Positions 8,577 to 64,000 of a DNA stretch of 64,000 nt are shown here, one piece after another. Numbering within the stretch: the first letter of the stretch is position 1; the number at the start of each line of letters is the position of its first letter. The stretch comes from Candidatus Poribacteria bacterium (lineage in GTDB: Bacteria; Poribacteria; WGA-4E; JAJDTR01). The translations under genes were made by a program, and so were the position numbers. The stretch is taken from assembly GCA_965232235.1 (NCBI GenBank), contig OZ246960.1, forward strand, positions 871,058 through 935,057, written 5' to 3'. The notes below the pieces were generated by a model. That model had not been told where the DNA came from. It saw only the letters and a list, made by a program, of their open reading frames with translations, and did no database searches.

Positions 8577-8584
8577 AAATGTAT

Positions 8585-17950: not shown

Positions 17951-17998
17951 TCTGCGCACCAGCCTTTGAAAGCACCCAAGTTCCGTTCGCCGACTTCT

Positions 17999-29821: not shown

Positions 29822-30245
29822 GACCTCTATCGCGCTCATTATCCATTCGCTTGATTCTCCCACAATCGGGGAACAATAAGCTCTATCGGGATTGGATACC
29901 GTACCCAATGTCTCACGTGGCACTCCGCTGGAGTGCAGGAACTGGGACTTTTCCTTTCTATTGACATGCCGCCCCTCCGGGGCGGGGAGCCGCGTTCTGG
30001 AGGGGATCTCTGTGGGAACGCTATCGCGCTCATTATCCATTCGCTTGATCCTCCCACAATCGGGGAACAATAAGCTCTATCGGGATTGGATACCGTACCC
30101 AATGTCTCATATGGCACTCCGCTGGAGTGCAGGAATTGGGACTTTTCCTTTCTATTGACATGCCGCCCCTCCGGGGCGGGGAGTCGCGTTCTGGAGGGGA
30201 TCTCTGTGGGAACGCTATCGCGCTCATTATCCATTCGCTTGATCC
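29822..30245 (+). repeat. 194-bp tandem direct repeat (2.15 copies), each unit holding R1 + hairpin + ttctattgacat + GC hairpin
   Basis: The consensus starts at 29827, 30021 and 30215. Confidence 0.8.
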
Positions 30246-43317: not shown

Positions 43318-43923
43318 GTAGGGTGGGCATTGCCCACCATCTCCCTCTTGGTGCAAACCCCCAGTCCTAGCGCAACCACAGCCCAATTTCCGAGGCGACG
43401 ACCATTTTTCCGGCTTTGAACAATCAAGCTACGTGCACGCGTGTTCTCGGAACGGGCGGGGAAACCCCGCCCCTACATTGTTTTCCTCGAACTGCCCACC
43501 CGGTTGAATTATCTTACGTTATAGACGGAAAAAGGCTGGTGCGCGGTGCGCACCCTACGATGCTATCGCGACCAGGAGGTCGCTCCTACCAAATCCTACA
43601 ATCACAACAATTTTACGTGAGTAGGGTGGGCATTGCCCACCATCTCCCTCTTGGTGCAAACCCCCAGTCCTAGCGCAACCACAGCCCAATATCCGTGGCG
43701 ACGGCATTTTTCCGGATTTGATAAATCGAGCAACGTACCTGCGTGTTTTCGGAACGGGCGGGGAAACCCCGCCCCTACATTGTTTTCCTCGAACTGCCCA
43801 CCCGGTTGAATTATCTCACGTTATAGACGGAAAAAGGCTGGTGCGCGGTGCGCACCCTACGACACTATCGCGACCGGGAGGTCGCTCCTACCAAATCCTA
43901 CAATCACAACAATGTTACGTTAG
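43318..43923 (+). repeat. 303-bp tandem duplication (2 copies) made of four REP-like hairpins
   Basis: Copies start at 43318 and 43621; each contains gtagggtgggcattgcccacc, ggcggggaaaccccgcccctaca, ggctggtgcgcggtgcgcaccctac, atcgcgaccgggaggtcgctcctac. Confidence 0.8.
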
Positions 43924-48289: not shown

Positions 48290-48410
48290 TCTTGTTAGTC
48301 CATCCTATTCCTTAATCGGTTGCTTGATCTATTCACTCGGTTGCGGGATTTCTATCGCATAAGATGTACTATCGCCCTCGCTATTCACTCGGTTGATCCT
48401 CTCCAATGCT
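48290..48410 (+). repeat. R1-family repeat cluster
   Basis: Seen directly. Confidence 0.5.
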
Positions 48411-49961
48411 CGAACTCGTCGCTAGTAGCGCCTTCCGAAGTACCTCGTTATCAAACGCCTCAAGCAACGCGCTGCCATAAATTTGCACGTAGGCATCGAT
48501 TGCCATCTTTTCGGCAGCGTCGATAGGCTCATCCAACCGCGCCGCGGTCAATTCCCCGCTTTCGAGAATCTCGGAAATGGTTTTCGAGAAACTTCTAATC
48601 TCTTCGTCACTCGCCGCGCCGATCCCTTCCAACGCTCTCGCGGCTTGCGTCAAGTCTGTTAGCGTTTGCGTGCCAGCAAGTTCCGGGTGTTCCGCATAAT
48701 CTTGAAGTTGCTGCTCCAGTTCATCCGCCCCGTGAAACGCTTCAATTTCGATATCCAGTTCCTCCAACCGCTCGAGCGATTCCTTCATAAGATGCCCCGC
48801 CGTCACTAACGACTGCCTATTGGAAATGCGTGAACTTTCATCGACCTCCTCAGCACCTTGTACCGCGATAAGCAGCAGTTCGGCAACCCGCTGCTTATCC
48901 CCTCGGTCAGCCGCCTCGCCAATCGCGAAACGCAGCCCCGTCTTCACATCATCCGGCACTGTCGTTGTCCCTGTCTCAAATAATTCCCGAAACTCCTCAA
49001 ACGCTTCCGATTCTCCTCCCGCCTCAATCGATTCTCGGAATTTATCGAACCTATCGGAGCCCGACGGCAGTTTGGCGACCCCTTCCGCGATTTGCTTGAG
49101 CGTATCCGTAGCTGTCTCGTTCCTTCCGTCGGCTGAACCAAACATCTCCTCACCCAAAGCGGTTATCCGATCAGTCTCCGTTGATGTCAGGTCAACGCCC
49201 TCAAAGATTGACGGATCGGCGCCGCCCTCCTCCTTGCTGCTGCCGACATCTCCAGTCATTCTCACTCTTTTCTGGTGGATCATCTTCACTCCCGCCTCGT
49301 CTCCGATAACTCCGGATGTCACCGCCTCCTCCACATCACTCGCAAACTCCAAGAACGTGTCGATCTCAATCCGTTCAGCGCCTGGCGCCGAATCCTCGGG
49401 CAATCCATCTATCTCTCGCAGGCCCGACTCATAACGTCCGTTATTTTCCGTCGGCGTGTCCCCGAGCAACCCTCCATCATACAGGTTCGTCCACTGATCC
49501 GCCTTCCGCTTCCGTTCCGCCTCGTCCACTTCCGTTTTTGTCTCCGGCGGCGTCTCCAACTCAATCCCGATCCGCTTCAGAATCGCCTTTTCAAACCTGT
49601 CCGCTTTTTCCGTATTTCCCGTCTTTTCCGCTCTATCCAGCAGATTCCCGAGAACCTCCAGATCCGCCTTCTTCGTTTCGTTTTCCTGCTTTAGCTCGTG
49701 TTCGGACGTTTCCCGCTCTTGCTCCGCCGCTTCTTCCGTCCACTGATCCTGAATCTCCTGTAGCTGCACCCGCTTGTCGTCAAGCAACTGCTGCGCCAAC
49801 CGCTTCTCACGCTCCGTCTCCGCCTGATGCACCATCACCTTCGCCTCAAGGTAGGCGCGAATCCCGGCGGCTAAGCGCCGTGCGGTGTCTGCCCCGATTT
49901 GCGTGCCAACGGGCGGTTGGTACGATGTGGTTTGTCCATCGATTCTCTGAATGTTTGGCAT
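48381..49961 (-). CDS. acidic coiled-coil protein (526 aa), possibly phage scaffold-like
   Basis: Glu/Asp-rich, low complexity; the N-terminal ~20 codons overlap an R1 repeat. Confidence 0.35.
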   Translation of the reverse strand: MPNIQRIDGQTTSYQPPVGTQIGADTARRLAAGIRAYLEAKVMVHQAETEREKRLAQQLLDDKRVQLQEIQDQWTEEAAEQERETSEHELKQENETKKADLEVLGNLLDRAEKTGNTEKADRFEKAILKRIGIELETPPETKTEVDEAERKRKADQWTNLYDGGLLGDTPTENNGRYESGLREIDGLPEDSAPGAERIEIDTFLEFASDVEEAVTSGVIGDEAGVKMIHQKRVRMTGDVGSSKEEGGADPSIFEGVDLTSTETDRITALGEEMFGSADGRNETATDTLKQIAEGVAKLPSGSDRFDKFRESIEAGGESEAFEEFRELFETGTTTVPDDVKTGLRFAIGEAADRGDKQRVAELLLIAVQGAEEVDESSRISNRQSLVTAGHLMKESLERLEELDIEIEAFHGADELEQQLQDYAEHPELAGTQTLTDLTQAARALEGIGAASDEEIRSFSKTISEILESGELTAARLDEPIDAAEKMAIDAYVQIYGSALLEAFDNEVLRKALLATSSSIGEDQPSE

Positions 49962-50108
49962 GAATTACCTCCGTAATGCGTAATAGGGCCTCTATCGCAC
50001 GGGACTTAACTATCGATCAACGGAACGGATAGTGACTGCGATAGGAAGTCCTACTCGTTATTCGCTCGTGTGATCGTTAGCAGCCAATTTGCTTAGCATA
50101 GTCTGTTC

Positions 50109-50137
50109 TTGACTCTAATCTCACAATCTGCTATAAT
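50109..50137 (+). promoter_or_regulatory. near-consensus sigma-70 promoter TTGACT-N17-TATAAT
   Basis: TTGACT at 50109..50114, 17-nt spacer, TATAAT at 50132..50137; AAGGAAA ribosome-binding site then ATG at 50196. Confidence 0.6.
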
Positions 50138-50195
50138 GCCATCGTCGCTAGCGAAACGCGACAATGCGAATCCTCCTCTTGCAAAGGAAAACGCT

Positions 50196-50651
50196 ATGAA
50201 CCTCAGCGACACAGCCCAAATCGCAGGTCTAGTCATTTTATACCTAGGTGGCATATTCCTAATCGGCAACTACATGGCAACCACACTCGGTAAACGCATG
50301 GATGATCTGGGCAAACGCATGGACGACATGCGATCCGACATCAACGCCCGTATGGGCGATATGAACACCCGTATGGACGAGATGCGAACCGACTTGCTTA
50401 TGCGCATGGGCGACATGCAATCCAACATCAACGCCCGCATGGGTGACGTTAACAATCGCATAGACGATATGAACACCCGCATGGATGAGATGCGAACCGA
50501 CTTGCTTTCGCGCCTGGGCGACATGCAATCCAACACCAACGCCCGCATGGGCGATATGAACACCCGATTTGACGATATGAACACGCACATGGATGAGATG
50601 CGATCCGACCTGCTTACGCGCATGGACGACATGCGATTCCAACTCAGCTGA
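50196..50651 (+). CDS. membrane-anchored Met-rich tandem-repeat protein (151 aa)
   Basis: Start moved to the Met downstream of the promoter; N-terminal TM helix, then about 11 repeats of RM[DG]DMxxxINA / RMDEMRTDLL. Confidence 0.55.
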   Translation: MNLSDTAQIAGLVILYLGGIFLIGNYMATTLGKRMDDLGKRMDDMRSDINARMGDMNTRMDEMRTDLLMRMGDMQSNINARMGDVNNRIDDMNTRMDEMRTDLLSRLGDMQSNTNARMGDMNTRFDDMNTHMDEMRSDLLTRMDDMRFQLS

Positions 50652-50800
50652 GAACACGATACCCTGGCGACAAAAGTCGACACCATCGATCAAAAGCTAA
50701 CCCACCACATCGGCGATCACGAAATTCATGAAAAATGGCAAACATGATTTCCTGATAAATACACAAGGCCACCGTCTCTCCTCTCCGTGCTCTTCATGTT

Positions 50801-52594
50801 TCACACCCTGACAACACTTCGCCTCTGTTTCCTAACTGCTGCCTGATCGATCCTCTGCTGCGCTGTCGTCATGATGCGAGAGCGGCAGGCGCCCTGCACC
50901 GCGTCCGGTGCATCGTTGTGATCCGCCGACGGGAATTGCCTGAACTGCTTCCAGAACTCCGGCGGCAACTCCCGCTCGTTGAACGCCAGCCATCCGTTCG
51001 CTATCGCAGGCTCAAGCGTTTCGATCCGGTCTTCCTTGTTCTGGTGCTGCTCGTGATACGTAATCACCCCTTCAAAGCGATGGCGCTCTTTCGTGGCACG
51101 AAACGCATGATCGGTTGACATTCGTATTGTGCCGTCCGTGTCCGGTCTCTGTTCGCATACGAAGTTGGTCTTCGGGTAAGCGGGCGCCAACATCGCTTCC
51201 GCGCGCTGCGCCAGCAGGATGGCGTTCTCCATCTGCTCCGTCAACGGAGCGCGCTCCAGCCACGCCAGCATCACGTACCCGTTCACTCCGGATAGCGAGT
51301 CGGGATTCATCGATTGCCCGCCGAGGAGCGGCTCCCACGCCACCACAACGGCGCACGCATAACTGTTCGCAACCGCATCGCGGCCGCCCATGGTGTCGAG
51401 ATACGTCGTGAATCCGCCGATATCGTGCCACGGCACGACACGCCCGTCGCTCCGGCGAAAGCCTTCGTCCGTGACGGAGAACGTGATCGCTGCGTCCATG
51501 TTGAACAGCGACATGGAGGGATCGCGCGCATCGTTCTGGAGTTCGCGCATGACGCTGTGGTAGCCGCGTTCCACGACCTCCTTCCGCACTCGGAGATACG
51601 GCAACTCCTTCTCCCACAGCATCGACACGCCCGCCGTCATCTCATTCTCATGTTCGTTGAAGAACGCGTCCGCCTTGCTCTCGCGATCCAGGTCATCGAG
51701 CGTCGTGTCGCTGTAGAACCGCTCCCACTCTTTCCACAGATACTCGGCGGTAGGGTGATAAACATCTTTGGGATAACGCACCGCTTCGTAGCGCAGCGTC
51801 TCCCAACCGGGCACGGTGCGGAGATGTTCGGACAGCGATTCGGGGTGTTTCACCGTGTCAACTATCATGGTGTTGGAGTGCTTGCTCCCCAAGTCGCCGG
51901 CGTACATAAAGTCGGTCATGAACCAGTCCCTGTCTTCTTCGCGCAGCTCGGGATTCAGGCAGCGTTTCGGATCTTCGATGTCGTCGCACAGTTTCAACGT
52001 CGGGCGCACATCGCCGAGCAGTGCGCCCCGAGGCGACGCGCCCCGTCCGAGCGGTCTTAGCCCAACGCCGTTGCTGGTATCGGTCTCCGTCTTTGACCAC
52101 GGATCGCCGACCAGGTCGCCAAAATCTTGTCTGATAAAAGGATTGCGTTCGAGGACTTGGCGAATTTCGGTGATGCGTTGGCGCGCCATGCGCTCGTTTC
52201 GGCCCACGATGAGGATAAACTCCTCAGGCGGTCTATCCATGGCGATATCGAAGTCCTTGTAGCAGATCCGCCAGATGGGGATTAGGCGGTTGACAATTGT
52301 TGTCTTTCCGGTGCCGCGCGGCGCTTGGACGTTTACCTGTTGCCCGTAGTCGCCGGGTTTTATCGCGTTCAATATCTGAAGATGAAAGTCTTGAAATTCG
52401 AGGATGCGATAGCTGATGTTTCTGATATAGTACCAGATGAATAGTTCCGGATACAGATATCCGGCGTGCGCTCTAAGACTCCTCGCCATCTTCGGATTCT
52501 TGCGCATCTGCCTCACAACATGCTGCGATATAAGTAATCGCGGCAGCGTTGACATCGTCTGGATGAGAGTCTTCGAGGGTACTATCTTTGTCAT
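50801..52594 (-). CDS. phage terminase large subunit (TerL)
   Basis: Walker A VQAPRGTGKTT; acidic LKLCDDIED box; C-terminal RNaseH-like nuclease motifs including SADHNDAPDAV; the real start may be the internal Met at 52489. Confidence 0.65.
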   Translation of the reverse strand: MTKIVPSKTLIQTMSTLPRLLISQHVVRQMRKNPKMARSLRAHAGYLYPELFIWYYIRNISYRILEFQDFHLQILNAIKPGDYGQQVNVQAPRGTGKTTIVNRLIPIWRICYKDFDIAMDRPPEEFILIVGRNERMARQRITEIRQVLERNPFIRQDFGDLVGDPWSKTETDTSNGVGLRPLGRGASPRGALLGDVRPTLKLCDDIEDPKRCLNPELREEDRDWFMTDFMYAGDLGSKHSNTMIVDTVKHPESLSEHLRTVPGWETLRYEAVRYPKDVYHPTAEYLWKEWERFYSDTTLDDLDRESKADAFFNEHENEMTAGVSMLWEKELPYLRVRKEVVERGYHSVMRELQNDARDPSMSLFNMDAAITFSVTDEGFRRSDGRVVPWHDIGGFTTYLDTMGGRDAVANSYACAVVVAWEPLLGGQSMNPDSLSGVNGYVMLAWLERAPLTEQMENAILLAQRAEAMLAPAYPKTNFVCEQRPDTDGTIRMSTDHAFRATKERHRFEGVITYHEQHQNKEDRIETLEPAIANGWLAFNERELPPEFWKQFRQFPSADHNDAPDAVQGACRSRIMTTAQQRIDQAAVRKQRRSVVRV

Positions 52595-53117
52595 TCAGTA
52601 ACTTTTGCAACTTCTCCCCGTGCGCAGCCGCCCTGTCTTGCGCTTCCAACGATTGCACCCGCGCCCGCATCTGGCTCAGATGTGTGCTGTCGCTCTCGGC
52701 GTTCATCGCCTTGATGTCGGCAATCAGCCCCTTCATGGCTTCCACATGGGCGGGGATGAGCAGACCCGTCGTGCGTTCCAACTCCTCCTGCCTCGCACGG
52801 TGCGCTATCGCGCCGTATTTTTCGCTGTCAAAGTGAGGGCTGTGCGGATTAAATGCCTGAATCGCCTCTTCTATCTCCCGATAATCCTTACAATAGTTCT
52901 GCTGGGGTGTCTTGTCCTCAATTTTAGATTGGCAATCGGGACAGGCCTCATAGATTTCGCGGATAACCGTATCGGGCGAGTCAAGTATCGCGAGTTTCCT
53001 CGCAATCATCTCGCGTATGGCTTTCCCTTCAAGATGCTTATTCCATTCAACTCTTTCCTGTGCCACATCCACATGAGAACTCCTGAACCCCGGTGGTGAG
53101 TAAATAAAGACTCGCAA
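52473..53117 (-). CDS. hypothetical protein; candidate small terminase subunit by position only
   Basis: Immediately upstream of, and overlapping, the TerL start; CPDC Cys pair. Confidence 0.25.
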   Translation of the reverse strand: MRVFIYSPPGFRSSHVDVAQERVEWNKHLEGKAIREMIARKLAILDSPDTVIREIYEACPDCQSKIEDKTPQQNYCKDYREIEEAIQAFNPHSPHFDSEKYGAIAHRARQEELERTTGLLIPAHVEAMKGLIADIKAMNAESDSTHLSQMRARVQSLEAQDRAAAHGEKLQKLLNDKDSTLEDSHPDDVNAAAITYIAACCEADAQESEDGEES

Positions 53118-53908
53118 AAGTAAGTCTCGATCGTCAGATCAAGATGGAGCCCTTTCTGGCTCGCAAGTCTCCATTACTCACTGTTCCTTAAATCACCACT
53201 GTCGACCCTACGACAATCTCTAGGCTTTACGTTCTGGCGGCAATCCTCGCGTCTGCACTACGAAGTTGGTTCATGCAATAAAAAAAACCCGCCAGCGGTG
53301 TCACTAAAAAGCAGTGGCTAGCGGCCAGTCGCCAGTGACCAGTGAAAGCCAGGAGATTCTCTTGGCGTTACTGACCACTAACTGCTGACCACAAGCCACT
53401 GGGTTTCAATGACTTCCACTAACGGGCTTGTCTTGGTTGCGTTTTCCGATGAACGCGGTTCAAATTGTTTTATGTACGGCTGCTATGAGGACGAGTGCCG
53501 ACAGCGGCAACCGACGTAATTTTACCATGTTGGGGCGGGTTTTTCAATCGTCAAAAATAAGTTTGAACACTGGGGGAGAAGCAGTGAGGAGGGAAGGATG
53601 AGGGGGCAGAGACGGGAAGAAGAGAGTAGGGGAATGCGTGGAAACAATAGATCGGAGAAAATAGAGGAATGGGCACGGTGGTTGGGTAAGAGGATTGGTT
53701 AAAGGGATTCTAGAGATTCCTTTCGCCATCATTATGGGAAATCTGTCGCACCGGATGTGCTTTCGTTTAACCTCCTTTGATCGAATTGTATCCAGTAGGA
53801 CATGGTGGAGAAACTCCTTTCTTTTGCTTGGCGTTTCCGAGCCCTATTGTCGCCCAGATGATGACCATTGTTCCAGTCGAATGGATCTCTTATTCAACTG
53901 TCTAGTTT

Positions 53909-54313
53909 TTGGGGGTAATTACAGCTTTCTATCTGACTTTGAACACGGCGTTTCTGGCACTGATTGGATATACCCTCAGATCTGGTACAAACAATGAAAA
54001 TTTAACTTCGATACTTTTTATTCCCATTGCATCATTATTGGGGTTAGTTCTATCTCACTTGTGGTTCAGAACAATAAAATCTCATAAGCAACTCAATATT
54101 GGGAAGTTTGATGTTATTCTTCTGATGGAAAGAGAGTTGCCGTTTGCGCCATACACTGCCGAATGGAAATCTCTTGAAGAAGGAAAGAATCCCAATAGGT
54201 ATCAAGAAATTACAAACATTGAGTCGAGGCTACCGAAGATTTTTGCCGGAATGTACGTGGTATTCGGAACACTGCACATTGTTCCAATATTAGTCAGTAA
54301 AATCGGCGGGTAA
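53909..54313 (+). CDS. small 2-TM membrane protein (134 aa) inside the cassette
   Basis: Two hydrophobic helices at the N-terminus and another at the C-terminus; low-GC codon usage. Confidence 0.4.
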   Translation: MGVITAFYLTLNTAFLALIGYTLRSGTNNENLTSILFIPIASLLGLVLSHLWFRTIKSHKQLNIGKFDVILLMERELPFAPYTAEWKSLEEGKNPNRYQEITNIESRLPKIFAGMYVVFGTLHIVPILVSKIGG

Positions 54314-54520
54314 AACGTCAAGCACCTCTATCGTTTTCCATGCCCACTCCCTATCACTTTCTTTCTCTTCCTCAGATAAATCATCATAGTTGATTTTAAT
54401 TTGGCGGCGCCATCTGGAAATATTTTCGTCTGTGAGGTTCTCAAGCATATAACTCGTCCAGTGCGCCCATTGCTCATGTTCGAGCGCTGCGAGCTTTTCA
54501 ATCAGTTCTTTGGAAACCAT
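54290..54520 (-). CDS. small hypothetical protein (76 aa) inside the cassette, convergent with the membrane protein
   Basis: ORF track from the internal Met MVSKELIEKL. Confidence 0.3.
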   Translation of the reverse strand: MVSKELIEKLAALEHEQWAHWTSYMLENLTDENISRWRRQIKINYDDLSEEEKESDREWAWKTIEVLDVLPADFTD

Positions 54521-55347
54521 TTTTTCTTCCTTAAATACTATGATTGTTAAGCAACCGTAACTAACAAAATTACAGATCAATATTATAACAGTTTCTCATA
54601 ACATGTCAACTCGTTCCGTCCCCACCCTTGCTTGAACCTTCATCACTTCCACCCGTTATACGTCCCCGCCTGATAAAAAGCTACTAATAAACTAGTAGTC
54701 ATTATGTACTCTTTCCGCAGCACATTTGTCTCTTAATGATATAAAACACTGTTCTGGCGGAAAATTTTTTCGCAAACACGCATTCCAGCGACGTGGTAGA
54801 TGCTTGATGCTGAGTCAAGTCGATCTCTATTGGACTAACTATGGGAACTAACACCGCCTTCGCTATTCACACAGTTGATCGCTCGGTTATTCGCAATCCA
54901 CTTGCGTGAGGGATTTTCTATCGCGGTCATTATTCATGCGCTTGATCGGACGAGTGCCAACGGGGTCAGCCGAGATAATTTTAACATGTTGGGGCGGGTT
55001 TTTCAATCGTCAAAAATCCTGCTGAACATTGGAGAGGGCTGTGGCGAGTCGGGAGGGATGAGGGGGAGAAGACGGGAATTCGTGAAACAAAAAAAAAGCC
55101 CGCTAGCGGGAGCGTTCATGGAGGCGAAACCACTTCCGCTGACGGGCTCGGCTTGGTGTTGCACACTGGAACTTGTAGTGTGCGACTAGCTTGTTTTTAT
55201 ACACGTTAGGAGGTGTATATTTTCATAGACGGGATCGGTTTTTGGAGGTTTAGAGAGAAGGGCGTTTTTTTTGGGGATTAAGGGGAACCGCGGGGGAATG
55301 GATAGCCAGAAAACGGGGATGGATAGAGCGCGCCGATTGACTGTTGA

Positions 55348-55704
55348 TTAATTGTCCCGTAATCTGGGCGCGGTGAAACGGAACAGCAGGATTAATGCGA
55401 TCACGATGGTTAGCACCAGGAGCACTCGATTATTGGTTTCTCTGTCTCTTTTCTCGCGGTGCTCACGCACGTCTATCTGTGTCCTGAGGTTGGCATTTTC
55501 GACTTCTGCTTCGGAAAGTACGAGTTTGAGTTTCGCGTTCTCTTCCCTCAAACCCTTGATTGTCTCGCCCTGATCGACGGTACTAATCGTGTCCTCGGAA
55601 CCCACATCGGCTCTTACGACCGTCCTTGAAGCGCCAAAATGGGGTGGCACACAGATCGCACATAGGAGTATTATGCACCGGAAAAGGGTTTTCGGGTCGA
55701 GCAT
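55348..55704 (-). CDS. small coiled-coil protein with an N-terminal signal and a C-terminal TM helix
   Basis: ORF track. Confidence 0.3.
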   Translation of the reverse strand: MLDPKTLFRCIILLCAICVPPHFGASRTVVRADVGSEDTISTVDQGETIKGLREENAKLKLVLSEAEVENANLRTQIDVREHREKRDRETNNRVLLVLTIVIALILLFRFTAPRLRDN

Positions 55705-56057
55705 GTTTGGCTCCGTGTGCGTCGGGTTGGGGCGCGTGACGGAGGAAGGGCGCCCTCAGTGATGTTAAACATAGCACGGCTGCCGCGGTTTGTCAACGGG
55801 AGGAGGCAGGATTGGACAGACTTGTCGCGTGGTGCGGCGGTCGGGCGGCGCAACCGAGATCGGTGATGACGGAGAAAACGGGAGGGATGGGAGTGGAAAC
55901 CATGGAGTCTGTCAGGAGATGCATTCGGATAGAGTGTTGTTCATGGGTGTAATGAGAAACATCTTGACGCGAGGGACTGCCTCCCGTAGTATGAAGGATA
56001 GGTGACACCGCGAACGGAGACGGACCGACCAAGATTTTGAAGTGTCTATAAGGTACA

Positions 56058-57023
56058 ATGACGAAGATGATTAAAAGGGACCTACAATATTACGTGGAGA
56101 AGATGAAGCGCTTGAAGATTGACAGGGCGCACGGTCCGGCGCCGCATAAGCCGGCGCTGCTGCTGTCGGTCATCGCGCTGATTGAGGATGGGCTAGTTAC
56201 AGAGAATCGAATTGAGTTGTCCCCCGAAATGGCGGAGATCTTCATCCGATATTGGTCGAGGGTCACTAATCGAAAGCCTGATATTTCGTTGCCATTTTTC
56301 CACCTGCAGAGTGATGAGTTCTGGCATCTGCACCCAAACACGGGTTACGAAACGGCTCTGCGTGTTGCCAACCAGATTAAAGGGATTTCTCGGATTCGCG
56401 AGGTTGTTGCATACGCTGGTTTGGACGATGAGTTATTTCTGTTACTCACTGACGCGGTCGATAGAGAGACGATTCGTCGAACACTAATACGTACGTATTT
56501 CCAGGAATATATTAAACAGATTGGGGAGTTGATTGAGGAGGAGCAGCAGATCGGAGCGTACAGAGAATCGTTAATTGACGAAGTTGAATCGCCGTTTTCA
56601 ACGACGAAACCAAAAAGGCAAACTGGGGCTTACACCAAGGTACGCGATGCCGGGTTTCGGCAAGCGATCATGCGACTATACGATTACACTTGTGCGGTTT
56701 GCGAGTTGCGTATCGTCACTATGGATGGCGAGAGTGCAAGTGAAGCGGCTCATATCATCCCGTTTCGTGTTTCGCAGAATGACGATACACGGAACGGAGT
56801 CTCATTGTGCAAATTGCACCATTGGGCGTTCGACAGAGGACTGTTTTCGTTGAGCGAGAACCATCGGGTGGTTGTTTCCGGGTTGATGTCGGAGGATCGT
56901 CCAACGGAGTGGAAGTTGACGGAACTTGAAGACACACGTATTCAGTTACCGGATAGGGTTCAATTTCGCCCTGCACAGGAAGCAATGGCGTGGCACCGGG
57001 AAAATGTGCTCAAGCAGAATTGA
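56058..57023 (+). CDS. HNH_2-type endonuclease with an N-terminal DNA-recognition-like domain; candidate modification-dependent (type IV) restriction enzyme
   Basis: CAVCEL..EAAHIIPF..NGVSLCKLHHWAFDRGLFSL HNH motif at the C-terminus; N-terminal HKPALLLSVIALIEDG block. Confidence 0.5.
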   Translation: MTKMIKRDLQYYVEKMKRLKIDRAHGPAPHKPALLLSVIALIEDGLVTENRIELSPEMAEIFIRYWSRVTNRKPDISLPFFHLQSDEFWHLHPNTGYETALRVANQIKGISRIREVVAYAGLDDELFLLLTDAVDRETIRRTLIRTYFQEYIKQIGELIEEEQQIGAYRESLIDEVESPFSTTKPKRQTGAYTKVRDAGFRQAIMRLYDYTCAVCELRIVTMDGESASEAAHIIPFRVSQNDDTRNGVSLCKLHHWAFDRGLFSLSENHRVVVSGLMSEDRPTEWKLTELEDTRIQLPDRVQFRPAQEAMAWHRENVLKQN

Positions 57024-57239
57024 GTAATCGGTGTGATCGGAGAGATTTGTGTCGCGCGGGTTTGGGGGCAGAACAGAATGAGCGCCGGAACCTAGGATCC
57101 CTATCGCCCTCCCTATCCGGTCGGTTAATCTCACGCTGGAGCGGGGAATCGCGACCGGGAGGTCGCTCCCACAAAGGCTGGTGCGCGGTGCGCACCCTAC
57201 ATATAGATTTGTTCCCACCCCACAACTACTCCCGTGACG

Positions 57240-58031
57240 TCACTTGCGCTGATCCGGAGGGGTGGGTTTACGCTTTGGAGGTGTGGGTTGGTTCATTTTT
57301 CTTAATTCGGCCCATGCATTGCTTGAGATCCACTTATCGGGGTGCTTTTCCAGCCGTTGAAGCCCCTTCTTCCTCTGGTCAAGATCGGGGATGGACATGA
57401 CTTCGCAGAATGCTTCCAAGACCGGGAGTTTTTTCTGGTAGTATTCCCGGGACAATTGCCAGGTGGCTTGCTCGTTGCGAATGGAAGCTTCGAAGTAATG
57501 CTCTTCCGTCATGTCGAGTTTGGTTCGAATTTCGGATTCGCGGGCGTGCATGCTCCAATTCTCATCCAAGATCACGGCATTGTCGGGAACGAATTCGGGG
57601 AATTTTGAGATCTTCAGGAAGTAGACCAGGTCCTCCGTCTCTGAAAACATAGGACCTTCCGTGTGACCTGAGATATCGCACTGATACGCGAGAAGGGTCG
57701 CCGGGCTGCGTTCAGGTTGCGGCTTTAGTTTCTTGTTGATTTCTTTCAGGTCGCGTTCGGAAAAGAGGGCTTGTACGATCTTTTCTTTCGCGTAGAGTAC
57801 CCGGTTGATTCGGATTGTATGCAAGGAACCGTCGTCTGATGTATCGATGATGGGTGACTTCCAATTGACAATGACGAACTGGGTGCTGGTGACCCTTCCG
57901 AAGAACACGATATCGGATTTCTCGACGAGTTCGTGAATATGAATCACCGACGAGATGGCGTGAGCCAGAATGGTTGGAATGACGGATAGCGCTAGAACGG
58001 CGATGCCTGATAACCAAGAATGGCGTTTCAT
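57240..58031 (-). CDS. secreted hypothetical protein (263 aa)
   Basis: Signal peptide MKRHSWLSGIAVLALSVIPTILAHA. Confidence 0.35.
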   Translation of the reverse strand: MKRHSWLSGIAVLALSVIPTILAHAISSVIHIHELVEKSDIVFFGRVTSTQFVIVNWKSPIIDTSDDGSLHTIRINRVLYAKEKIVQALFSERDLKEINKKLKPQPERSPATLLAYQCDISGHTEGPMFSETEDLVYFLKISKFPEFVPDNAVILDENWSMHARESEIRTKLDMTEEHYFEASIRNEQATWQLSREYYQKKLPVLEAFCEVMSIPDLDQRKKGLQRLEKHPDKWISSNAWAELRKMNQPTPPKRKPTPPDQRK

Positions 58032-58129
58032 TTTTGCCTCCGACGGCGGTTGGTCGATGGTGTTGTCCGTGACGATGCTGGGAATGCAGGGGTTCGTTGG
58101 GGGACATTATCGCACATGAGCTGCCGATT

Positions 58130-58720
58130 TTGCAAACCGTATGGGATCAAGCGAATGAAAAATGAGTGCGATTGGGATTCTAAGGCGATGGAAATTTCTA
58201 ATGGCTATTCGCAGATTGTAGAGGGTGGAGTTCTGTTGCGGGGATAGGGCGGGCGTGGGAGATCTATGTCGTCGTACGGATGAGATCACAATCTAACAGA
58301 TTGTGGTACTGGGATCGGGCGCGGGAACCGCGCCCCTACGACGCATCGGGTTTGTTGAGGGATTTGCTATTGCGCACACATCTTTATCGGCGTAGAGAGA
58401 GATCACAATCTAACAGATTGTGGTACATGGCTTTTGTGCTTGATCACATGCGGCTAATCGGGGCAAGGGAATCTCTATCGCGGTCGCTATCCACTCCCTT
58501 GATTCCCTCCTACAACCGGGCGGAGGGAGATTTCTGTTGCGGGGATGGGGCGCGGAGACCGCGCCCCTACGAACCCGACTGGGCAGGGGATTTCTATCGC
58601 GCGAAGATCTCTATCGGGATGGACTATCGCGTTCCCTATTCGGTCACTTGATCCCTCACTATCCGTTCGGTTGATCTTATCCAGTCGGTTGATTCCCGCC
58701 TACAGATTTATTCAGAAGGG
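58130..58720. repeat. dense cluster of R1-family repeats, GTAG-REP hairpins and a duplicated palindrome atcacaatctaacagattgtggtac (58283, 58400)
   Basis: Seen directly. Confidence 0.65.
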
Positions 58721-58721
58721 C

Positions 58722-59285
58722 TTACGATCTGGCGGCAAAACTTGCGTCAAGCGTGCCGCCGGGAGAGAAAATATCCCCCAAGCCGACCGGTGTCTCTTTC
58801 GTCTGATCGCCGCCGCCTGAATCGCCCTCGACATGCAATTCCATATCTTTCGCGGCTTGCTGGCTCTCCTTTTCAGCCGCCGTCTGATACATCTTACCGA
58901 AGATGTCGGACACGCCGATCACGTCTCCGCGCAAAAACGCATACGCCGCCTCCCAGAGTTGCGGCTCCGAGGCGTCGGGGTGTTTCATGCGGATTTCCTT
59001 CTCCGTCTCAAGAATCTTCATCTTCAAATCCTGCCGATACTGATTCTCAAGGATAAGCCGCTGTTCCTCGGTAATCTCGTCGCCGTTCTGCTGCGGCAGG
59101 CCGCCCAGACTCTCGATGATAGTCGCAATCTTCTGATCCATCGACAACGCTGCGGACGGTTCGGGCAATCCCTCGATCTGGATGCCTTGTTTCCCCAAGG
59201 TATCAATAACTTCGTCGAGGGTCATGGTGCGCTTGGTGTCGGTGTCTTGCTGCTGGTTTTGTTCTGTTGGTTGAGTTGGTGCCAT
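58722..59285 (-). CDS. acidic hypothetical protein (187 aa)
   Basis: ORF track. Confidence 0.3.
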   Translation of the reverse strand: MAPTQPTEQNQQQDTDTKRTMTLDEVIDTLGKQGIQIEGLPEPSAALSMDQKIATIIESLGGLPQQNGDEITEEQRLILENQYRQDLKMKILETEKEIRMKHPDASEPQLWEAAYAFLRGDVIGVSDIFGKMYQTAAEKESQQAAKDMELHVEGDSGGGDQTKETPVGLGDIFSPGGTLDASFAARS

Positions 59286-59319
59286 GATATGTCCTCCTGG
59301 TGCGGATGAGTTTGGTTTG

Positions 59320-59960
59320 CGTAACGGGCGAGGGAAGATCTCTATCGCCTTCCTTGTTCAGTCAGTTGATCCTCGCCCCTACAGGTCAAATGGCTCGACA
59401 GAGCATAGTCGCGATTCGGAGATCGCTCCTACAACCGTATAGCTCACATTGCACTCCGCTGGAGTGCGGAGATTTGACGTATGGTGTTTCTATTGACATT
59501 GCACTGCGCTGCAGTGCGATGGAAGGTGTGGGACTTACTATCGCGCTCGTTATTCACTCGCTTGATCCCACCCTACAACTGCTAAATCGCGACCTGGAAA
59601 TCGCTCCTACAAATGGAGAGAAATCTCTATAGCGCCCGATGCCTCACATTGCGCTCCGCTGGAGCGCATAGGCGAATATGGCGATTTTCTATTGACATGC
59701 CGCTCCGCTGGAGCGGGGAATCGCGACCGGGAGGGGGATTTCTATCGTCCTCGTTATCCACTCGCTTGATCGTTCCTACAGGTCAAATCATGCCGGTGTC
59801 CATGCCCGACGCGACATTTTGGTTAAGGGGATTTCCTATCGTCCTCCCTATCCGGTCGGTTGATGGATTCCCGCGGGATTTACTATTAGGATTTGCTACC
59901 GCACTCACTATCCGTTCGCTTGATCCCTCGCTATTCGGTCGGTTGATCTCCGTTGGTTGA
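59320..59960. repeat. dense cluster of R1 repeats plus two ttctattgacat+hairpin modules and GTAG-REPs
   Basis: Seen directly. Confidence 0.65.
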
Positions 59961-61504
59961 ACCGGTTGCGAAAACGTGTCATCATCCCAACCGTAGCCGG
60001 TGTCGAATCCCACAAACTTGATTAACTCGCTAATTGACATGTGCGCGCCCAGCGCCGCCATGATCTGCGCGATCTCCAGCTTGCCAGCCGGCGTGTTCGG
60101 CAGTGAGGTCGCGTCGGGCATCTTCATGCGGTATCCGATATACCGCGCCTCCTCCCTGAGCGAATCAGGGAAATCAATACCCCGCCGCCAAATATGAGCC
60201 GCAAGCGGACGGCGGGCAAACTGTTGTGTCAACGAAATCAGCAACCGCATCCGATGAAGCCGGAATTCGTTCATCTCGCGGACGTTGTTGCTTATCTGGT
60301 TAAACGCCGCCCACTGCAGCGTGTTCACCATTCTGCCGCTGGCGTTGGAGGACGGGGCTTGCCCGGCGAACACCGGATTCAGAGACGGCATCATGTCCGC
60401 AATCCCTTGAATCGAGTGTTGCAAGAGATTGTACAGAATCGGCGGCACCGCTTCCGTTGGAAACGGTTTGATATCTCTATCAAGGTCGTACTCCTCCTCG
60501 ACCTCGATGTTGACGCCGTATCCCGTAAACACCTGCTCCATATCCAGCGCGCCGCGCTTCGATATCATGCGGCCTATCGACAATCGACGCAGCATCAGGA
60601 TAAGGTTGGAGTAAACCTCGTCGAGAAACTTCTGCTGCGACCAGCACAGTGCTCCGTAACCGTGTCCCCAAAACGATCGCGATTGATTACTGCTGTGTTT
60701 GATGACGGGGAAATTCCGCCACGTCGCAAACGGGAAATCGGGGTAATAGTACGGCGTTGTCCGAATCCGCACGACGTCGTTGTCGATTGCCGTCGCATAG
60801 AAAACCTCCGTGTCGCCCGCGTCCTTCACCTGTATGCCCTGCATCTCGGCAATCCATCGCCGCATCCACAGTTCCCGAATCCTGAACTGTCGCTGCTCAT
60901 TATCCAGATTTGAGCCGGTTTTTGAATCGGAAATCTGGTAGTCGGGATAGTGGTAGCGGATATAGCGCTCGTTCTGTGTCGTCTCGTGCACCAGGAATCC
61001 CGCATTCGACAAATCCGTGCTCGTTGCGTCCGGATCGACGGAGAACGCCAGCGGCGAAATCGGTACCATCCGCACCACGCGATAGCGCGGGTCATACACC
61101 GCTTTCGAGATGGCGTGTCCGAAGATCAGGTTGTGGTAAACCGCATCTTCAAGGCGCTCACCCTCCTTGTCCACCTCCTGAAACATCTGGGTCCACTGTT
61201 TCAAATCCTCGATATTCTCGGCATCCTCAATGCTGTGGCGGCTCCTGTCCGGCAGCAGTTCTATCCGTGCCGCCTGCTCCGTGAACGCCGGCACCAGACG
61301 CAGGATTCCCTTCTGAATCTCGGGATTCAGGCTCTCATGCGTTATCGGAGACACATTCCCAATAGACGTGCCATCGACGTACGCACTGCGATTATTGTAA
61401 ATCGCGAGCTCATGACGCATCCGGCTGTGGTGTTCCTGCGCCGCACCCTGCGCCTCGTCCATGAGGCTGAAAAATTTTTCGGCTGATTTTTTGTTTATCA
61501 TCAC
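59783..61504 (-). CDS. putative phage portal protein; the C-terminal ~55 codons are repeat-derived
   Basis: Size and position in the module; the last part of the ORF reads through the R1 repeats (..ERIVSAVANPNSKSRGNP..). Confidence 0.35.
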   Translation of the reverse strand: MMINKKSAEKFFSLMDEAQGAAQEHHSRMRHELAIYNNRSAYVDGTSIGNVSPITHESLNPEIQKGILRLVPAFTEQAARIELLPDRSRHSIEDAENIEDLKQWTQMFQEVDKEGERLEDAVYHNLIFGHAISKAVYDPRYRVVRMVPISPLAFSVDPDATSTDLSNAGFLVHETTQNERYIRYHYPDYQISDSKTGSNLDNEQRQFRIRELWMRRWIAEMQGIQVKDAGDTEVFYATAIDNDVVRIRTTPYYYPDFPFATWRNFPVIKHSSNQSRSFWGHGYGALCWSQQKFLDEVYSNLILMLRRLSIGRMISKRGALDMEQVFTGYGVNIEVEEEYDLDRDIKPFPTEAVPPILYNLLQHSIQGIADMMPSLNPVFAGQAPSSNASGRMVNTLQWAAFNQISNNVREMNEFRLHRMRLLISLTQQFARRPLAAHIWRRGIDFPDSLREEARYIGYRMKMPDATSLPNTPAGKLEIAQIMAALGAHMSISELIKFVGFDTGYGWDDDTFSQPVQPTEINRPNSEGSSERIVSAVANPNSKSRGNPSTDRIGRTIGNPLNQNVASGMDTGMI

Positions 61505-62178
61505 AGTCCCATATAATTAAAGCCGATTGGTTGTTTTTCATAGCGTCGGGTGAACGGATTCAGAAATCGCGCGTTTGGGCTATTTCTCCATACATCGGGA
61601 TCAGCGATATATCCTTCGCCTGGCAGCGAATCAAGTATCGCTTGCGCGTCCGAACCGCCAAACAGTGTGTCCACGGCGCCATTAGTCGTTTCGTCGTCGG
61701 GGTTTTGACCTATTTTTTTCAGGTACGCAAGGTTCTTGATAATCGAGGCGAGATCCTCCATGAACGACGAATCACCCGACAGATTCTTGAGCCGATCGTT
61801 CACTGTCTTAGACAGACCGGACAACGATGCGCCGTACTGCGAGCTTGCCGCTTGCATCGCCGCGTTAATCGGCGCCTGCTGCGCCTGCTGCAGCAGCGCC
61901 AGACCCGCGGGGCTGGACGGCCCCAACCGAGCAGCGATATTACCGGACGCCGCCTGCATCTGAGGCCCCGCGTTCTGGCGTATCATCGCCAGTTCCGCTT
62001 CGGTAAACTTCCCGCGGCTGCGGCGTTGAAGATCTCTGTTGAACTGCACTTGCTGATTCAACACCTCTTGTTGCAGCCTGTAGAGATCTCGGTTCGCGAT
62101 TCGGTCATAAATTCCGAGTCCGAGATTCGCCAACGCGCTTCCGCCCGCTATGAGCGCCATTGTCGTGGGTTCTGCCAT
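61501..62178 (-). CDS. hypothetical phage-module protein (225 aa)
   Basis: 4-nt overlap with the portal start. Confidence 0.3.
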   Translation of the reverse strand: MAEPTTMALIAGGSALANLGLGIYDRIANRDLYRLQQEVLNQQVQFNRDLQRRSRGKFTEAELAMIRQNAGPQMQAASGNIAARLGPSSPAGLALLQQAQQAPINAAMQAASSQYGASLSGLSKTVNDRLKNLSGDSSFMEDLASIIKNLAYLKKIGQNPDDETTNGAVDTLFGGSDAQAILDSLPGEGYIADPDVWRNSPNARFLNPFTRRYEKQPIGFNYMGL

Positions 62179-62179
62179 T

Positions 62180-62371
62180 TTAAATCACCTTTTCCGTGGA
62201 CACTTTAAACCATCCGTCAATCAGAAATTTGTACAATTCGCCATCCATCACAACTTCATCGCCGAACTGTGCACTTCCGGGCAGTTCTCGAACTTCTCGC
62301 ACCCTGTCCTGCTTTTCGTCGTCCACATGTCTCGTTAACGCATCCAAGGATTGCTGTTCTTTCAGTGGCAT
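62180..62371 (-). CDS. small hypothetical protein (63 aa)
   Basis: Tight coupling to the neighbours. Confidence 0.25.
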   Translation of the reverse strand: MPLKEQQSLDALTRHVDDEKQDRVREVRELPGSAQFGDEVVMDGELYKFLIDGWFKVSTEKVI

Positions 62372-62512
62372 TGCCGCCTCATTGATTATGAAAAACGCGA
62401 TGAGTTGACCGAATAGGAAATCAGGTTTCCTTTGGGAGTTCTATCGGGATTTTCTATCGCGGTCACTATTCGTTCCCTTGATCCCAGTTGATTGATAGAA
62501 AGACTACCGGCG

Positions 62513-63985
62513 TTACACGTACGCTCGAACCTTCAACCCTCTAATTGTCGCGCCGCCCGTTCCGGCAATCTTGAACCGCATCGCAAATCCCCGACGGTCT
62601 ATCCGAACCCGCACATAATCGAATCTTTCCCCGCCCATCCTATTCGCCGTGATAGTTTTCTCGACCGGCTCTTGATCATCGATGTAAAATGCGGCGGTTA
62701 CGTCTTTCTCCGCGTTCCCGTCAATCACCAGTTCCTTGAAGGTTTTCATCTCGCTTCCAAGCCCCTGCGAGTTCCAATCAAGCTGCTGCGATTCCCAAGC
62801 CCAATCAATTTCCTCCGTGGGAGCGCCCTCTTGCCCCGTGTACTTCGTTAAGCCGTCAACCGTTTCGTCATCGACCACCCAATCGAGCAGGCGCGGTGAG
62901 CGCTGCCCGTCGGCGATCACGCCCGTCAGCGGCTGTTCGTCAAACTTCACCGAAGCGTATTGACGGATGTGCGCCCCGTCAGGGACTTCTATCGCACGGG
63001 ATTTACTATCAGGTTTTACTATGGGATTAGCTATCGCAGTCGCTATCCGCTCCTTTGATCCTTCGTTATCAAGATCTCTATCGCACTCGTTATTCACTCG
63101 CTTGATCTCAGTTGATCCTTGCGCGAAGCGCACCCAATCGTTGCCATCATTAACAAAATAGATGATATCGGTATTGCCGGTCGACTTATGGCGGCGGCGA
63201 ATCCCCCACAGGCTCGCATTGTTCGGCAGCATACCCACAAACCCGTCGTCCACCTCGTACCGATTGAAATATCCTTTCAACTGGGGCACAGACTCCGGCG
63301 CAGCCGTTCCGTCCGTCAGGTAGAGCCCGTCACTCCCCACAAAGCCGAAGGCTTTTTCGAGCACACTCCACGCATGGGGTGATGCCGGACCGCGTGCCGA
63401 AATTCGGTCGTATCGAAACGTCTGTGGTGATGTGCCGCTGAGCCGGTGAAGATTATCGGCCGCGCCGAACAGCAGCATCCCTCGATATTCGGCGCAGAAC
63501 TCAATGCGCTGACCGGTGGTGATGGCATTTATGACAGGCCAAGCATGCCACCGCGGTGTCAAATTGCGCACGTCACTAAATCGGAGTTCGTTTCCGTTTG
63601 CGCCAAACAGCCGGTCGTTAAATCTTTCTATCTGTGAAATACTCGGAGGCATTCGGCTGCTGTCCGTTAGCGGGTTCGACACATCGATTACGATTTCCCC
63701 ATCTTCAAGTTCATAATTGTCGTCGTCAAATTCAACGTCTTCATCGCCGATTTCAACCTCGCCGACGCGATAGTATGTAATGTTCGCGTCGTTTTCAAAT
63801 AGGTCGAAAGCGCCGCCGCTCCGGTATATGCGAACTGCTGTTACGCGGCTATCGTCGGAATGCGGTATATTGCGCAACGTTGCCAGCGGAACGTCTTGGA
63901 CCGGCGTTTGGCGGTAATTGATTGCGCGCCGTTCTGAAGCGGGTGATTCGATGGATCCTACGCGGCTGAACGCTACATAGGTCAA
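62513..63985 (-). CDS. phage-module structural-size protein (490 aa) with an in-frame repeat-derived segment
   Basis: The reading frame stays open across the R1 repeat cluster 62985..63110 (..SKERIATAIANPIVKPDSKSRAIEVPD..). Confidence 0.35.
   Translation of the reverse strand: MTYVAFSRVGSIESPASERRAINYRQTPVQDVPLATLRNIPHSDDSRVTAVRIYRSGGAFDLFENDANITYYRVGEVEIGDEDVEFDDDNYELEDGEIVIDVSNPLTDSSRMPPSISQIERFNDRLFGANGNELRFSDVRNLTPRWHAWPVINAITTGQRIEFCAEYRGMLLFGAADNLHRLSGTSPQTFRYDRISARGPASPHAWSVLEKAFGFVGSDGLYLTDGTAAPESVPQLKGYFNRYEVDDGFVGMLPNNASLWGIRRRHKSTGNTDIIYFVNDGNDWVRFAQGSTEIKRVNNECDRDLDNEGSKERIATAIANPIVKPDSKSRAIEVPDGAHIRQYASVKFDEQPLTGVIADGQRSPRLLDWVVDDETVDGLTKYTGQEGAPTEEIDWAWESQQLDWNSQGLGSEMKTFKELVIDGNAEKDVTAAFYIDDQEPVEKTITANRMGGERFDYVRVRIDRRGFAMRFKIAGTGGATIRGLKVRAYV
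62985..63110. repeat. R1-family repeat cluster embedded in-frame in CDS 62513..63985
   Basis: Four tatcgc..ttgatc units. Confidence 0.6.
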
Positions 63986-64000
63986 TTTGTAAAAATGGTA

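Follow-up and report, generated by a model that had tools for sequence, protein, structure and literature searches.

A podovirus-derived head, neck and packaging gene cluster, probably domesticated, in the chromosomes of Poribacteria

What is a block of phage head and packaging genes doing at one end of a 64,000-nt stretch of DNA from a Candidatus Poribacteria bacterium (GenBank assembly GCA_965232235.1, contig OZ246960.1, positions 871,058 to 935,057 of the forward strand; hereafter the window)? A preliminary description had recognised a phage-like packaging and structural module in the last 15 kb or so of the window and left it between a prophage remnant, a gene transfer agent (GTA)-like locus and a satellite. 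Gene identities and relatives confirm that the module is phage-derived. In our judgement it is probably a podovirus-derived cluster of head, neck and packaging genes that has become fixed in the chromosome, is under selection and has been domesticated; that this domesticated, selected cluster also makes particles, in the manner of a GTA, is a reading to which we give about even chances.

Homologous clusters were read in eight other Poribacteria loci (L001 to L007 and L014), in one distant chromosomal copy (L009) and on free phage contigs (L008, L010 to L013, L015, L017 and L018). In the window, TerL, the portal, the neck/tail gene and the small conserved genes share the minus strand; the phage genes are the following (identities here and below are of amino acids):

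48381-49961, minus strand: 526-aa acidic protein, downstream partner of TerL and last gene of the element
50801-52594, minus strand: terminase large subunit (TerL), matching phrog_38 with E=1.8e-52 over residues 36-583, Walker A and B motifs legible
52473-53117, minus strand: putative terminase small subunit (TerS), named from its position directly upstream of TerL, which it overlaps
58722-59285, minus strand: 187-aa acidic helical protein, following the portal gene, 86-94% identical in all loci
59783-61504, minus strand: P22-like portal, PF16510 (P22_portal) at 29.0 bits against a cut-off of 26.1
61501-62178, minus strand: conserved 225-aa gene, preceding the portal gene in every relative, with homologues in all loci
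62180-62371, minus strand: small 63-aa gene, 54% identical over 61 aa to a 107-aa gene at the same position in the free phage L017
62513-64000 and beyond, minus strand: neck/tail ("nozzle-like") virion protein, C-terminal 495 codons, matching phrog_511 with E=1.6e-15

The gene at 50801-52594, already called TerL in the preliminary description, combines the ATPase motifs (Walker A, APRGTGKTT; Walker B, LKLCDDIED; both read from the translation) with a match to a TerL family and is a terminase large subunit by both signs. In its nuclease part the match to Terminase_6C is weak (residues 498-559, 15.7 bits, below the cut-off of 22.6). The likely start is at 52507, giving a protein of 568 aa, and the public gene call (P0152) begins at M30. 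Identity is 56-64% to the TerLs of the free phages and L009, and 25-29% to TerLs of the transposable-phage type, mostly from Pseudomonas phages, among GenBank phages. That the gene might be a standalone terminase-family ATPase, which had been named as one of two refuting conditions, does not apply to this TerL, although standalone TerS-TerL pairs do occur elsewhere in these genomes. The possible TerS placed upstream is indeed a gene, with orthologues at 69-82% identity in L003 and L006, but its assignment comes from position: 52473-53117 has no Pfam or PHROG match and no BLAST similarity to phage TerS candidates.

The portal gene, previously only portal-like, scores above the gathering threshold of PF16510 and also matches phrog_156 (5e-14) and phrog_1216, both of them portal families. 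Its probable start is the ATG at 61501, and the gene call P0137 is the same protein read from that ATG. By tblastn against seven Poribacteria species representatives, three of them complete chromosomes, the portal is 83-89% identical, and identity to the Poribacteria orthologues is 88-94% over aligned positions with an insertion described below left out; against free phages it is 50-66%. The 225-, 63- and 490-aa genes of the preliminary description are on the same strand, as stated there, but the last of them is cut by the window edge: the neck/tail frame is open to base 64000, and whole orthologues are 620-818 aa long. Such orthologues occur in L001-L007 and L014, with homologues in the free phages L008, L010 and L017, and in orthologous and phage loci alike the gene stands next to or near an adaptor of the SU10 type. 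The 63-aa gene recurs in L001, L002, L004, L005 and L014, and its 107-aa homologue in L017 sits after the neck gene; the 225-aa gene is 36-47% identical to its counterparts in phages L008, L010 and L017. For the 187-aa protein no Pfam or PHROG family match was obtained; homologues at the same position in the phages and L009 are 28-36% identical, and position makes it a scaffold-like candidate. The 526-aa protein is 79% identical to that of L005 and weakly resembles the gene after TerL in L009 and L010. Scans of the whole window gave no tRNA and no Rfam family.

A capsid gene, which the preliminary description had suggested looking for beyond the window, is present in the orthologous loci together with an SU10-type adaptor. 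The window stops at base 64000 inside the neck gene, and the capsid gene, the 278-aa gene and the adaptor are known from the eight other Poribacteria loci that carry the cluster. The order there is a 417-aa gene, a 278-aa gene, a 331-aa adaptor (PF24175, SU10-type), the neck gene, a gene of ~200 aa, the portal, a 185-aa gene and a variable gap, after which TerS and TerL follow in L003-L006 and a 527-aa gene is visible in L005. The 417-aa orthologue is an HK97-fold major capsid protein (MCP): its AlphaFold2 model has a predicted local distance difference test score (pLDDT) of 84.4 and a predicted template modelling score of 0.82, and the top 50 Foldseek matches in the PDB are all capsid or encapsulin proteins with probability 1.00 (best E=5e-10). 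Modelling needed depth, the pLDDT being 33.5 with 9 sequences and 84.4 with 40 from a profile search. The MCP has no sequence-family match, PHROG scans of MCP relatives included, and PDB sequence searches with the MCP, the 278-aa family, the neck family, the portal and TerL returned nothing usable. The MCP of the orthologous loci places a capsid gene a few kb past the end of the window. Clusters of MCP and portal homologues comprise 76 and 51 distinct sequences, respectively, on contigs of up to 6.5 Mb.

Free relatives of these genes point to their source. Homologues found with the portal were numerous, and the contigs that carry them are similar in size, mostly 38-49 kb. Three sets of these free contigs, from sponge metagenomes or viromes, were read: L008 (42,023 bp), L010-L013 with L015 (38.5-38.9 kb, nine contigs), and L017 with L018 (47,780 bp, two samples). 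The 38.5-kb and 47.8-kb sets are circularly permuted between contigs or samples. One sample label, JAHN19 for L012, presumably denotes the sponge virome set of Jahn et al. Gene order in the free phages is MCP, ~270-aa gene, SU10-type adaptor, neck, ~210-aa gene, portal, ~175-aa gene, TerS, TerL and ~540-aa gene, the part from TerS to the ~540-aa gene being seen where a locus reaches that far, and MCP, adaptor, portal and TerL are 50-66% identical between the free phages and the window or its orthologues. The order in the window, which had been called atypical, is thus the one found on the free 38-48 kb phage contigs; its sole anomaly is an insertion of 4-8 kb of cargo between the 187-aa gene and TerS.

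The element and the free phages agree in order from the MCP to the gene after TerL and have similar GC content overall and at third codon positions (GC3). Amelioration of GC and codon usage was considered as a sign of long residence and dropped, the free phages having the same GC and GC3. Unlike the element, the free phages are complete genomes of 38.5-47.8 kb with all visible genes co-oriented; they carry an extra virion gene of 817-870 aa and a 1399-aa ParB-domain protein, and have no cargo gap, no repeats of the repetitive extragenic palindromic (REP) kind and no terminator hairpins. Each phage set has one or two additional genes of 680-870 aa, and PHROG scans gave no function for the large phage-only genes. 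The element is without the 837-aa gene that L017 has between its homologues of the 63-aa and 225-aa genes, and in the window this slot is closed, the two genes abutting at 62178/62180. All that L017 has upstream of its MCP, or beyond the counterpart of the 526-aa gene, is absent from the element as well. These comparisons indicate that the genes of the element derive from an uncultured podovirus family with genomes of 38-48 kb. The MCP, portal and neck protein have no tblastn match among 50,697 GenBank phages; the portal, TerL and MCP profile found no close relative in IMG/VR, where the hairpin motif described below was also without a match; and scans of JGI metagenomes with the hairpin motif and with the MCP gave none. 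Two free phages have, ahead of their capsid gene, a run of genes of sugar-nucleotide, methyltransferase and transketolase-like type, and the same stretches (L015:1283-8012 and L017:573-5832) hold a gene resembling the Acb2/Tad1 hairpin, a sponge that counters Thoeris and the cyclic oligonucleotide-based antiphage signalling system (CBASS).

The cluster is held at a shared place in the chromosome. At its right end the 526-aa gene abuts host PD40 genes, the junction is identical in L005, and synteny of the host genes with the L005 genome reaches an ABC-transporter operon. On the left, conservation among loci ends ~300 nt upstream of the MCP, and the flanks differ: a D5_N/PriCT_2 primase-helicase, divergent from the capsid operon, with a SocA-like gene in L014; DUF1670 regulators in L002; a transposase in L001. 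The primase-helicase is seen in L014 only; the seven other loci lack it in as much of their flanks as is visible. A scan of the flank open reading frames, many of which belong to no family, found no conserved integrase, lysis or replication gene within ~10 kb. An intact temperate prophage is not what these features describe: the right end is host DNA, the left flank is unconserved, the 837-aa gene is gone and the only transposases are those of insertion sequences (IS). Nor do the flanks look like those of a phage-inducible chromosomal island (PICI) or other satellite, given that no integrase was found among the flank genes scanned and that the primase is limited to L014. L007 and L014 have no TerL in the sequence visible downstream of the portal. 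The distant chromosomal copy L009 (positions 1-18700 of a 286-kb contig; portal 62% identical) has a near-absent cargo gap, a DDE transposase/IS, and split adaptor and neck genes, and looks like decay of the same phage lineage.

The substitution record of the genes agrees with long residence. Ratios of nonsynonymous to synonymous divergence (dN/dS), computed by the Nei-Gojobori method, with TerL compared to L005, were 0.044 for the MCP (95-98% identical between species), 0.059 for the 187-aa gene, 0.070 for the portal, 0.106 for the adaptor, 0.11-0.16 for TerL, 0.18 for the neck gene, 0.22 for the 225-aa gene, 0.27 for the 526-aa gene and 0.29 for the putative TerS. No internal stop was found in the 8-9 compared copies of seven genes. 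Between the window and the L005 genome, four genes of the host flank (a periplasmic binding protein, an ABC ATPase, a permease and an aldose epimerase) have dS of 0.34-0.55 and dN/dS of 0.05-0.12, and the portal, TerL and the 526-aa gene have dS of 0.42-0.56; since the dS of the element equals that of the flank, the element has diverged in step with the chromosome. Judged from these rates, the element is constrained like housekeeping genes and has co-diverged with its chromosome. It shows two of the marks expected of a GTA or a domesticated prophage, namely a phage cluster at a shared chromosomal locus (L001-L007 and L014, with the PD40 junction in L005) and host-like evolution under purifying selection. 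The impression in the preliminary description of a long-resident, possibly domesticated element is supported by the comparison with relatives that it suggested: the cluster was found in L001-L007 and L014, with synteny in these eight other genomes, dN/dS of 0.04-0.3 and host-like dS.

The operons carry a regulatory arrangement specific to this element. In the window it consists of three features:

53281-53433, minus strand: long hairpin followed by a U-tract, intrinsic-terminator-like, 153 nt, between promoter and TerS, ~85 nt past the promoter
53456-53609, minus strand: conserved promoter cassette upstream of TerS, with near-consensus TTGAAA-N17-TGgTAAAAT at 53547-53519
54915-55068, minus strand: second, identical copy of the promoter cassette, -35/-10 at 55006-54978, 1.5 kb upstream in the cargo gap

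Seven copies of the promoter, from five genomes, share exactly the same 24-nt core, GATTGAAAAACCCGCCCCAACATG, and the locus L016 has a diverged copy ahead of a paralogous TerS (TerS2). The second cassette directly follows the tail of another terminator (55091-55109), and two copies also occur in L003 and L006. Folding of the 191 nt at 53260-53450 gave a free energy of -95.3 kcal/mol (z = -9.25), and all 26 complete hairpin copies (both arms present; 9 sequences) fold alike, with a 14-bp base and a tract of U6-8, in short forms of 62-64 nt and long forms of 110-189 nt. Every copy is in the sense orientation and stands upstream of the MCP, the adaptor (L004 and L007) or TerS only; upstream of the MCP there are usually two in tandem, with further copies slightly further upstream in some loci, and L016 carries only a diverged short form, before TerS2. 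No copy occurs in the remaining ~60 kb of the window or in the free phages. The possibility of a genome-wide miniature inverted-repeat transposable element was rejected, all copies being in sense and at or near the operons of the element, with none in the 48 kb of host DNA of the window. The 5' arm of the hairpin, the 23-nt motif AGACAAGCCCGTTAGTGGAAGTC (53411-53433, minus strand), is invariant in 23 copies while its 3' partner varies; L001-L007 and L014 have about 24 copies of the motif. An unpaired variant of the arm, AGACAAGCTCACTAGTGGAAGTC, stands some 100 nt ahead of the start codon of every MCP. AGACAAGCCCGTTAGTGGAAGTC is a possible recognition site for a regulator. A terminator between a strong promoter and the late genes, overcome by anti-termination, is familiar from lambdoid late operons. 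The promoter-terminator-TerS layout of the element would be that expected for control of this kind. In the Caulobacter GTA cluster (CcGTA), anti-termination by GafZ is required (PMC11150451).

Taken together, the window would hold the right-hand two thirds of a fixed 38-48 kb podovirus-like phage remnant that retained its virion-head, neck and DNA-packaging genes only and lost the non-structural modules, and that was then split by a variable cargo island and colonised by REP-like repeats of the host. The genes would owe their retention to continued capsid assembly and headful (pac) packaging of DNA, yielding GTA-like or PBSX-like particles rather than infectious phage. TerLs of transposable phages package by the headful mechanism, and it is from kinship with them that we infer it for this TerL. 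The terminator hairpin would hold off expression before TerS and before the capsid operon until an antiterminator recognising the invariant 23-nt 5' arm released it.

Several observations weigh against this proposal. Particles, expression, lysis and DNA transfer are all predictions from the genes. No recognisable lysis, fibre or regulator gene lies in the conserved part of the element; L001 has an IS3-type element in place of the 5' part of the neck gene, and neither L001 nor L002 has a TerL within 10 kb of the portal. Allele classes (58-62% against 94-98% identity), mutually incongruent over the genomes and saturated in dS, are found for the 278-aa, 225-aa and neck genes; recombination has thus exchanged parts of the element, and its history is not purely vertical. 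The depth sampled is modest (host dS ~0.5, probably one genus-level clade). Finally, covariation lends little support to the long stem of the hairpin (2 of 39 pairs), and the grounds for calling it a terminator are its thermodynamics and its U-tract.

The phage operon is interrupted by cargo. The HNH endonuclease, secreted protein and repeat clusters described earlier between the two gene blocks are all there, and the cargo of the window comprises:

50109-50651, plus strand: coiled-coil repeat protein with its own consensus promoter, in a window-specific 840-nt insertion between TerL and the 526-aa gene
53118-58721: variable cargo gap of 5.6 kb splitting the phage operon, between the 187-aa gene and TerS
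53909-54313, plus strand: 8xMP membrane protein
54290-54520, minus strand: RyR-like 76-aa gene, convergent with the 8xMP gene
55348-55704, minus strand: 118-aa membrane/coiled-coil protein
56058-57023, plus strand: HNH nuclease (PF13391, 5e-12; PADLOC HNH, 1.5e-22)
57240-58031, minus strand: 263-aa secreted protein with a signal-peptide-like N-terminus

At the place of the gap the free phages have 20-66 nt, L009 has 0.6 kb and L003-L006 have 4-8 kb; in L001 and L002 it exceeds 9 kb. Run on the window, PADLOC found the HNH nuclease only, plus a weak ZorA-like coiled-coil match. An islet of low GC (0.435) at 53700-55300 holds the 8xMP and RyR-like genes and looks like recently acquired cargo; the RyR-like gene lies behind a perfect TTGACA-16-TATAAT promoter at 54609-54582. 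In L001 (14000-17860) and L002 (13685-17489) the gap after the 185-aa gene is filled by DndC-DndD-DndE, for DNA phosphorothioation. Three 108-nt repeats, with heptads of the RMDDM type, make up the protein of 50109-50651. L001 and L005 have comparable coiled-coil genes to the left of their capsid operons, and in L005 only 90 nt separate TerL from the 527-aa gene.

Could the element still be mobile? It might be an inducible prophage whose other modules lie beyond the ~10-kb flanks, or a capsid-encoding satellite that borrows fibres, lysis and replication from 38-48 kb helper phages. Sponge viromes do contain free relatives, and Jahn et al. (2021) report a "Poribacteria phage" that is homologous to integrated prophages and for which intracellular signals were seen (PMC8245591). 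The incongruent allele classes imply recombination with a wider gene pool, the primase-helicase of L014 diverges from the capsid operon, and hot spots of defence-type cargo are typical of prophages and satellites. On the other hand, no integrase was found among the flank open reading frames scanned, the left flank is different in every genome with the primase confined to L014, and to the right the element meets host DNA at a conserved junction. The dS matches that of host genes. IMG/VR supplied no close relative of the portal, TerL or MCP, and the GenBank phages no match to the portal, MCP or neck protein. Cargo of 4-8 kb separates the two parts of the operon in most copies, and in L001 and L002 the separation exceeds 9 kb. 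We consider continued mobility unlikely, though the likeliest of the alternatives.

Terminase genes also occur away from the main locus. More than 80 TerL clusters came up at 76-94% identity, and in several cases two or three of these share one chromosome-sized longest contig (P0152 and P0215 on the window's own contig, P0170 and P0233, P0216 and P0268); the chromosomes have 2-3 intact TerS-TerL pairs to a single capsid/portal set. One paralogue was read, at L016:9130-11707 on the L005 chromosome, 31 kb from the main element: flanked by a restriction-modification pair on one side and an ABC-transporter operon on the other, an intact TerS (189 aa) and TerL (568 aa) form a pair with its own diverged promoter and short terminator and with no capsid, portal or 526-aa gene adjoining. 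The TerL paralogues are 77-81% identical with dN/dS of ~0.1, and the two TerS proteins only 24% identical. It is a testable idea that each TerS-TerL pair starts headful packaging at a different chromosomal site. In its full form this idea is speculative, and we lean clearly against it: a podovirus-type transfer system would combine one capsid-neck-portal module with dispersed TerS-TerL modules under a shared cassette of promoter, terminator and 23-nt motif and a single antiterminator, each TerS packaging in situ from its own pac site. The proposed in-situ packaging from the chromosomal pac site of each TerS would resemble lateral transduction, and defined regions of the chromosome would, if the idea is true, be mobilised between uncultivable sponge symbionts.

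The same divergence of TerS can be read differently, being of the kind seen where packaging specificity is redirected. The cluster might then serve to interfere with related phages, by hijacking or poisoning their capsid assembly and packaging with the resident portal, MCP and TerS-TerL proteins, or to make killer particles in the manner of PBSX. Strong purifying selection on an incomplete virion gene set would suit such a role, as would the defence-type cargo in and beside the cluster (the HNH nuclease, DndCDE, and the restriction-modification pair next to TerS2-TerL2). These defence genes, however, are variable cargo outside the conserved core; a whole head, neck and portal set kept for interference has no precedent, and nothing links expression to infection. 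A role other than transfer seems improbable to us.

Least tenable is a functionless cryptic prophage in which erosion has merely not yet gone far, which the many lost phage genes, the IS in L001, the invasion by cargo and repeats and the clearly decaying copy L009 might suggest, but which is made very improbable by the selection data (dN/dS of 0.04-0.2 at dS of 0.5-0.8 and no stop in 8-9 copies of seven genes), by repeat insertions that all preserve the frame and the conserved C-terminus, by a promoter core and 23-nt hairpin arm invariant across species, and by host-like dS, which contradicts very recent spread as the cause of conservation.

Those insertions belong to a repeat load that had been described as heavy, and is. 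The 30-nt unit CTATCGNNNTCNNTATYCNNTCNNTTGATC has 29 copies in the window against 0 expected, 16 of them in the 48-64 kb part at ~3.7 times the density of the remaining window. This REP-like unit occurs genome-wide, is mostly intergenic in the rest of the window and fills the spacers of the element. Three places were mapped:

59286-59782, strand not assigned: mosaic cluster of repeats resembling REP and bacterial interspersed mosaic elements, between the portal and 187-aa genes
59837-59947, minus strand: in-frame REP-like insertion of 37 aa (111 nt) in the portal, from a C-terminal alignment of 12 portals
about 62985-63120, minus strand: frame-preserving REP-like insertion in the neck/tail gene, from an alignment, limits approximate

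Repeats had been reported in spacers, where they are, and at gene 3' ends, which is inexact: in the portal and neck genes they form internal, frame-preserving insertions. The portal copies, at 59836-59865 and 59896-59925, sit just before a C-terminal tail, NPLNQNVASGMDTGMI, that is kept even in the free phages; the gap between the portal and the 187-aa gene is ~90-300 nt in L001, L004 and L014. Copies in the neck gene lie at 63031-63060 and 63078-63107, and the insertion is found in the window and, with one to three units, in L006, L002 and L001, but is absent from L003-L005, L007 and the phages. The inserted repeats encode peptides like SERIVSAVANP or SSERIASAIENP. Such frame-preserving insertions would fit virion genes that stayed under selection while repeats spread. 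In-frame insertions of palindromic elements have been reported in Rickettsia; the likeness is in the in-frame repeat insertion, here in another phylum and in portal and neck genes. Host DNA of the window also holds two tandem repeats, one at 43318-43924 (302-nt period, 2 copies, 93% matches) and one at 29819-30245 (194-nt period, 2.2 copies, 96% matches); the latter consists of the REP-like sub-units that also make up the spacers of the element.

Poribacteria are abundant, uncultivated symbionts of sponges, and we know of no mechanism of gene exchange and no characterised prophage in them. A selected head and packaging cluster would be a candidate route of horizontal transfer in the sponge microbiome. 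The kind of system is known, while this variant and its phage family are undescribed; searches of GenBank phage records and IMG/VR contigs turned up no relative of the source family. Handles for work on existing sponge viromes and metatranscriptomes are the multiple TerS-TerL pairs, the promoter core GATTGAAAAACCCGCCCCAACATG and the 23-nt motif AGACAAGCCCGTTAGTGGAAGTC.

Among known systems, capsid-forming PICIs and other satellites resemble the element in having their own HK97 capsid, portal and TerS/TerL, an incomplete virion set and a chromosomal place with cargo. They also have an integrase, regulators and primase or replication genes, and excise, none of which is conserved in the element; unlike them, the element has adaptor and neck proteins and co-diverges with its host. 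PBSX of Bacillus subtilis is likewise a chromosomal, non-infectious, phage-derived cluster, and the packaging of host DNA, its known trait, would be shared by the element. PBSX is myovirus-like, with tail and lysis genes and known regulators, and there is no sequence relationship between the two. The known GTAs have, to our knowledge, siphovirus-type tails, whereas the element, with its SU10-type adaptor and P22-type portal, has a neck of the podovirus type, and fibre or lysis genes are not recognisable in it; it is also split by a variable cargo island, has extra TerS-TerL pairs and is so far a matter of genes rather than of particles. If GTA-like, it would add a short-tailed type to these elements. 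With RcGTA of Rhodobacter and CcGTA of Caulobacter it shares a chromosome-fixed head and packaging cluster common to related species, purifying selection at the rate of host genes, terminators in or before the cluster, as in CcGTA (PMC11150451), and, as far as the flanks of ~10 kb show, the lack of a replication or integration module.

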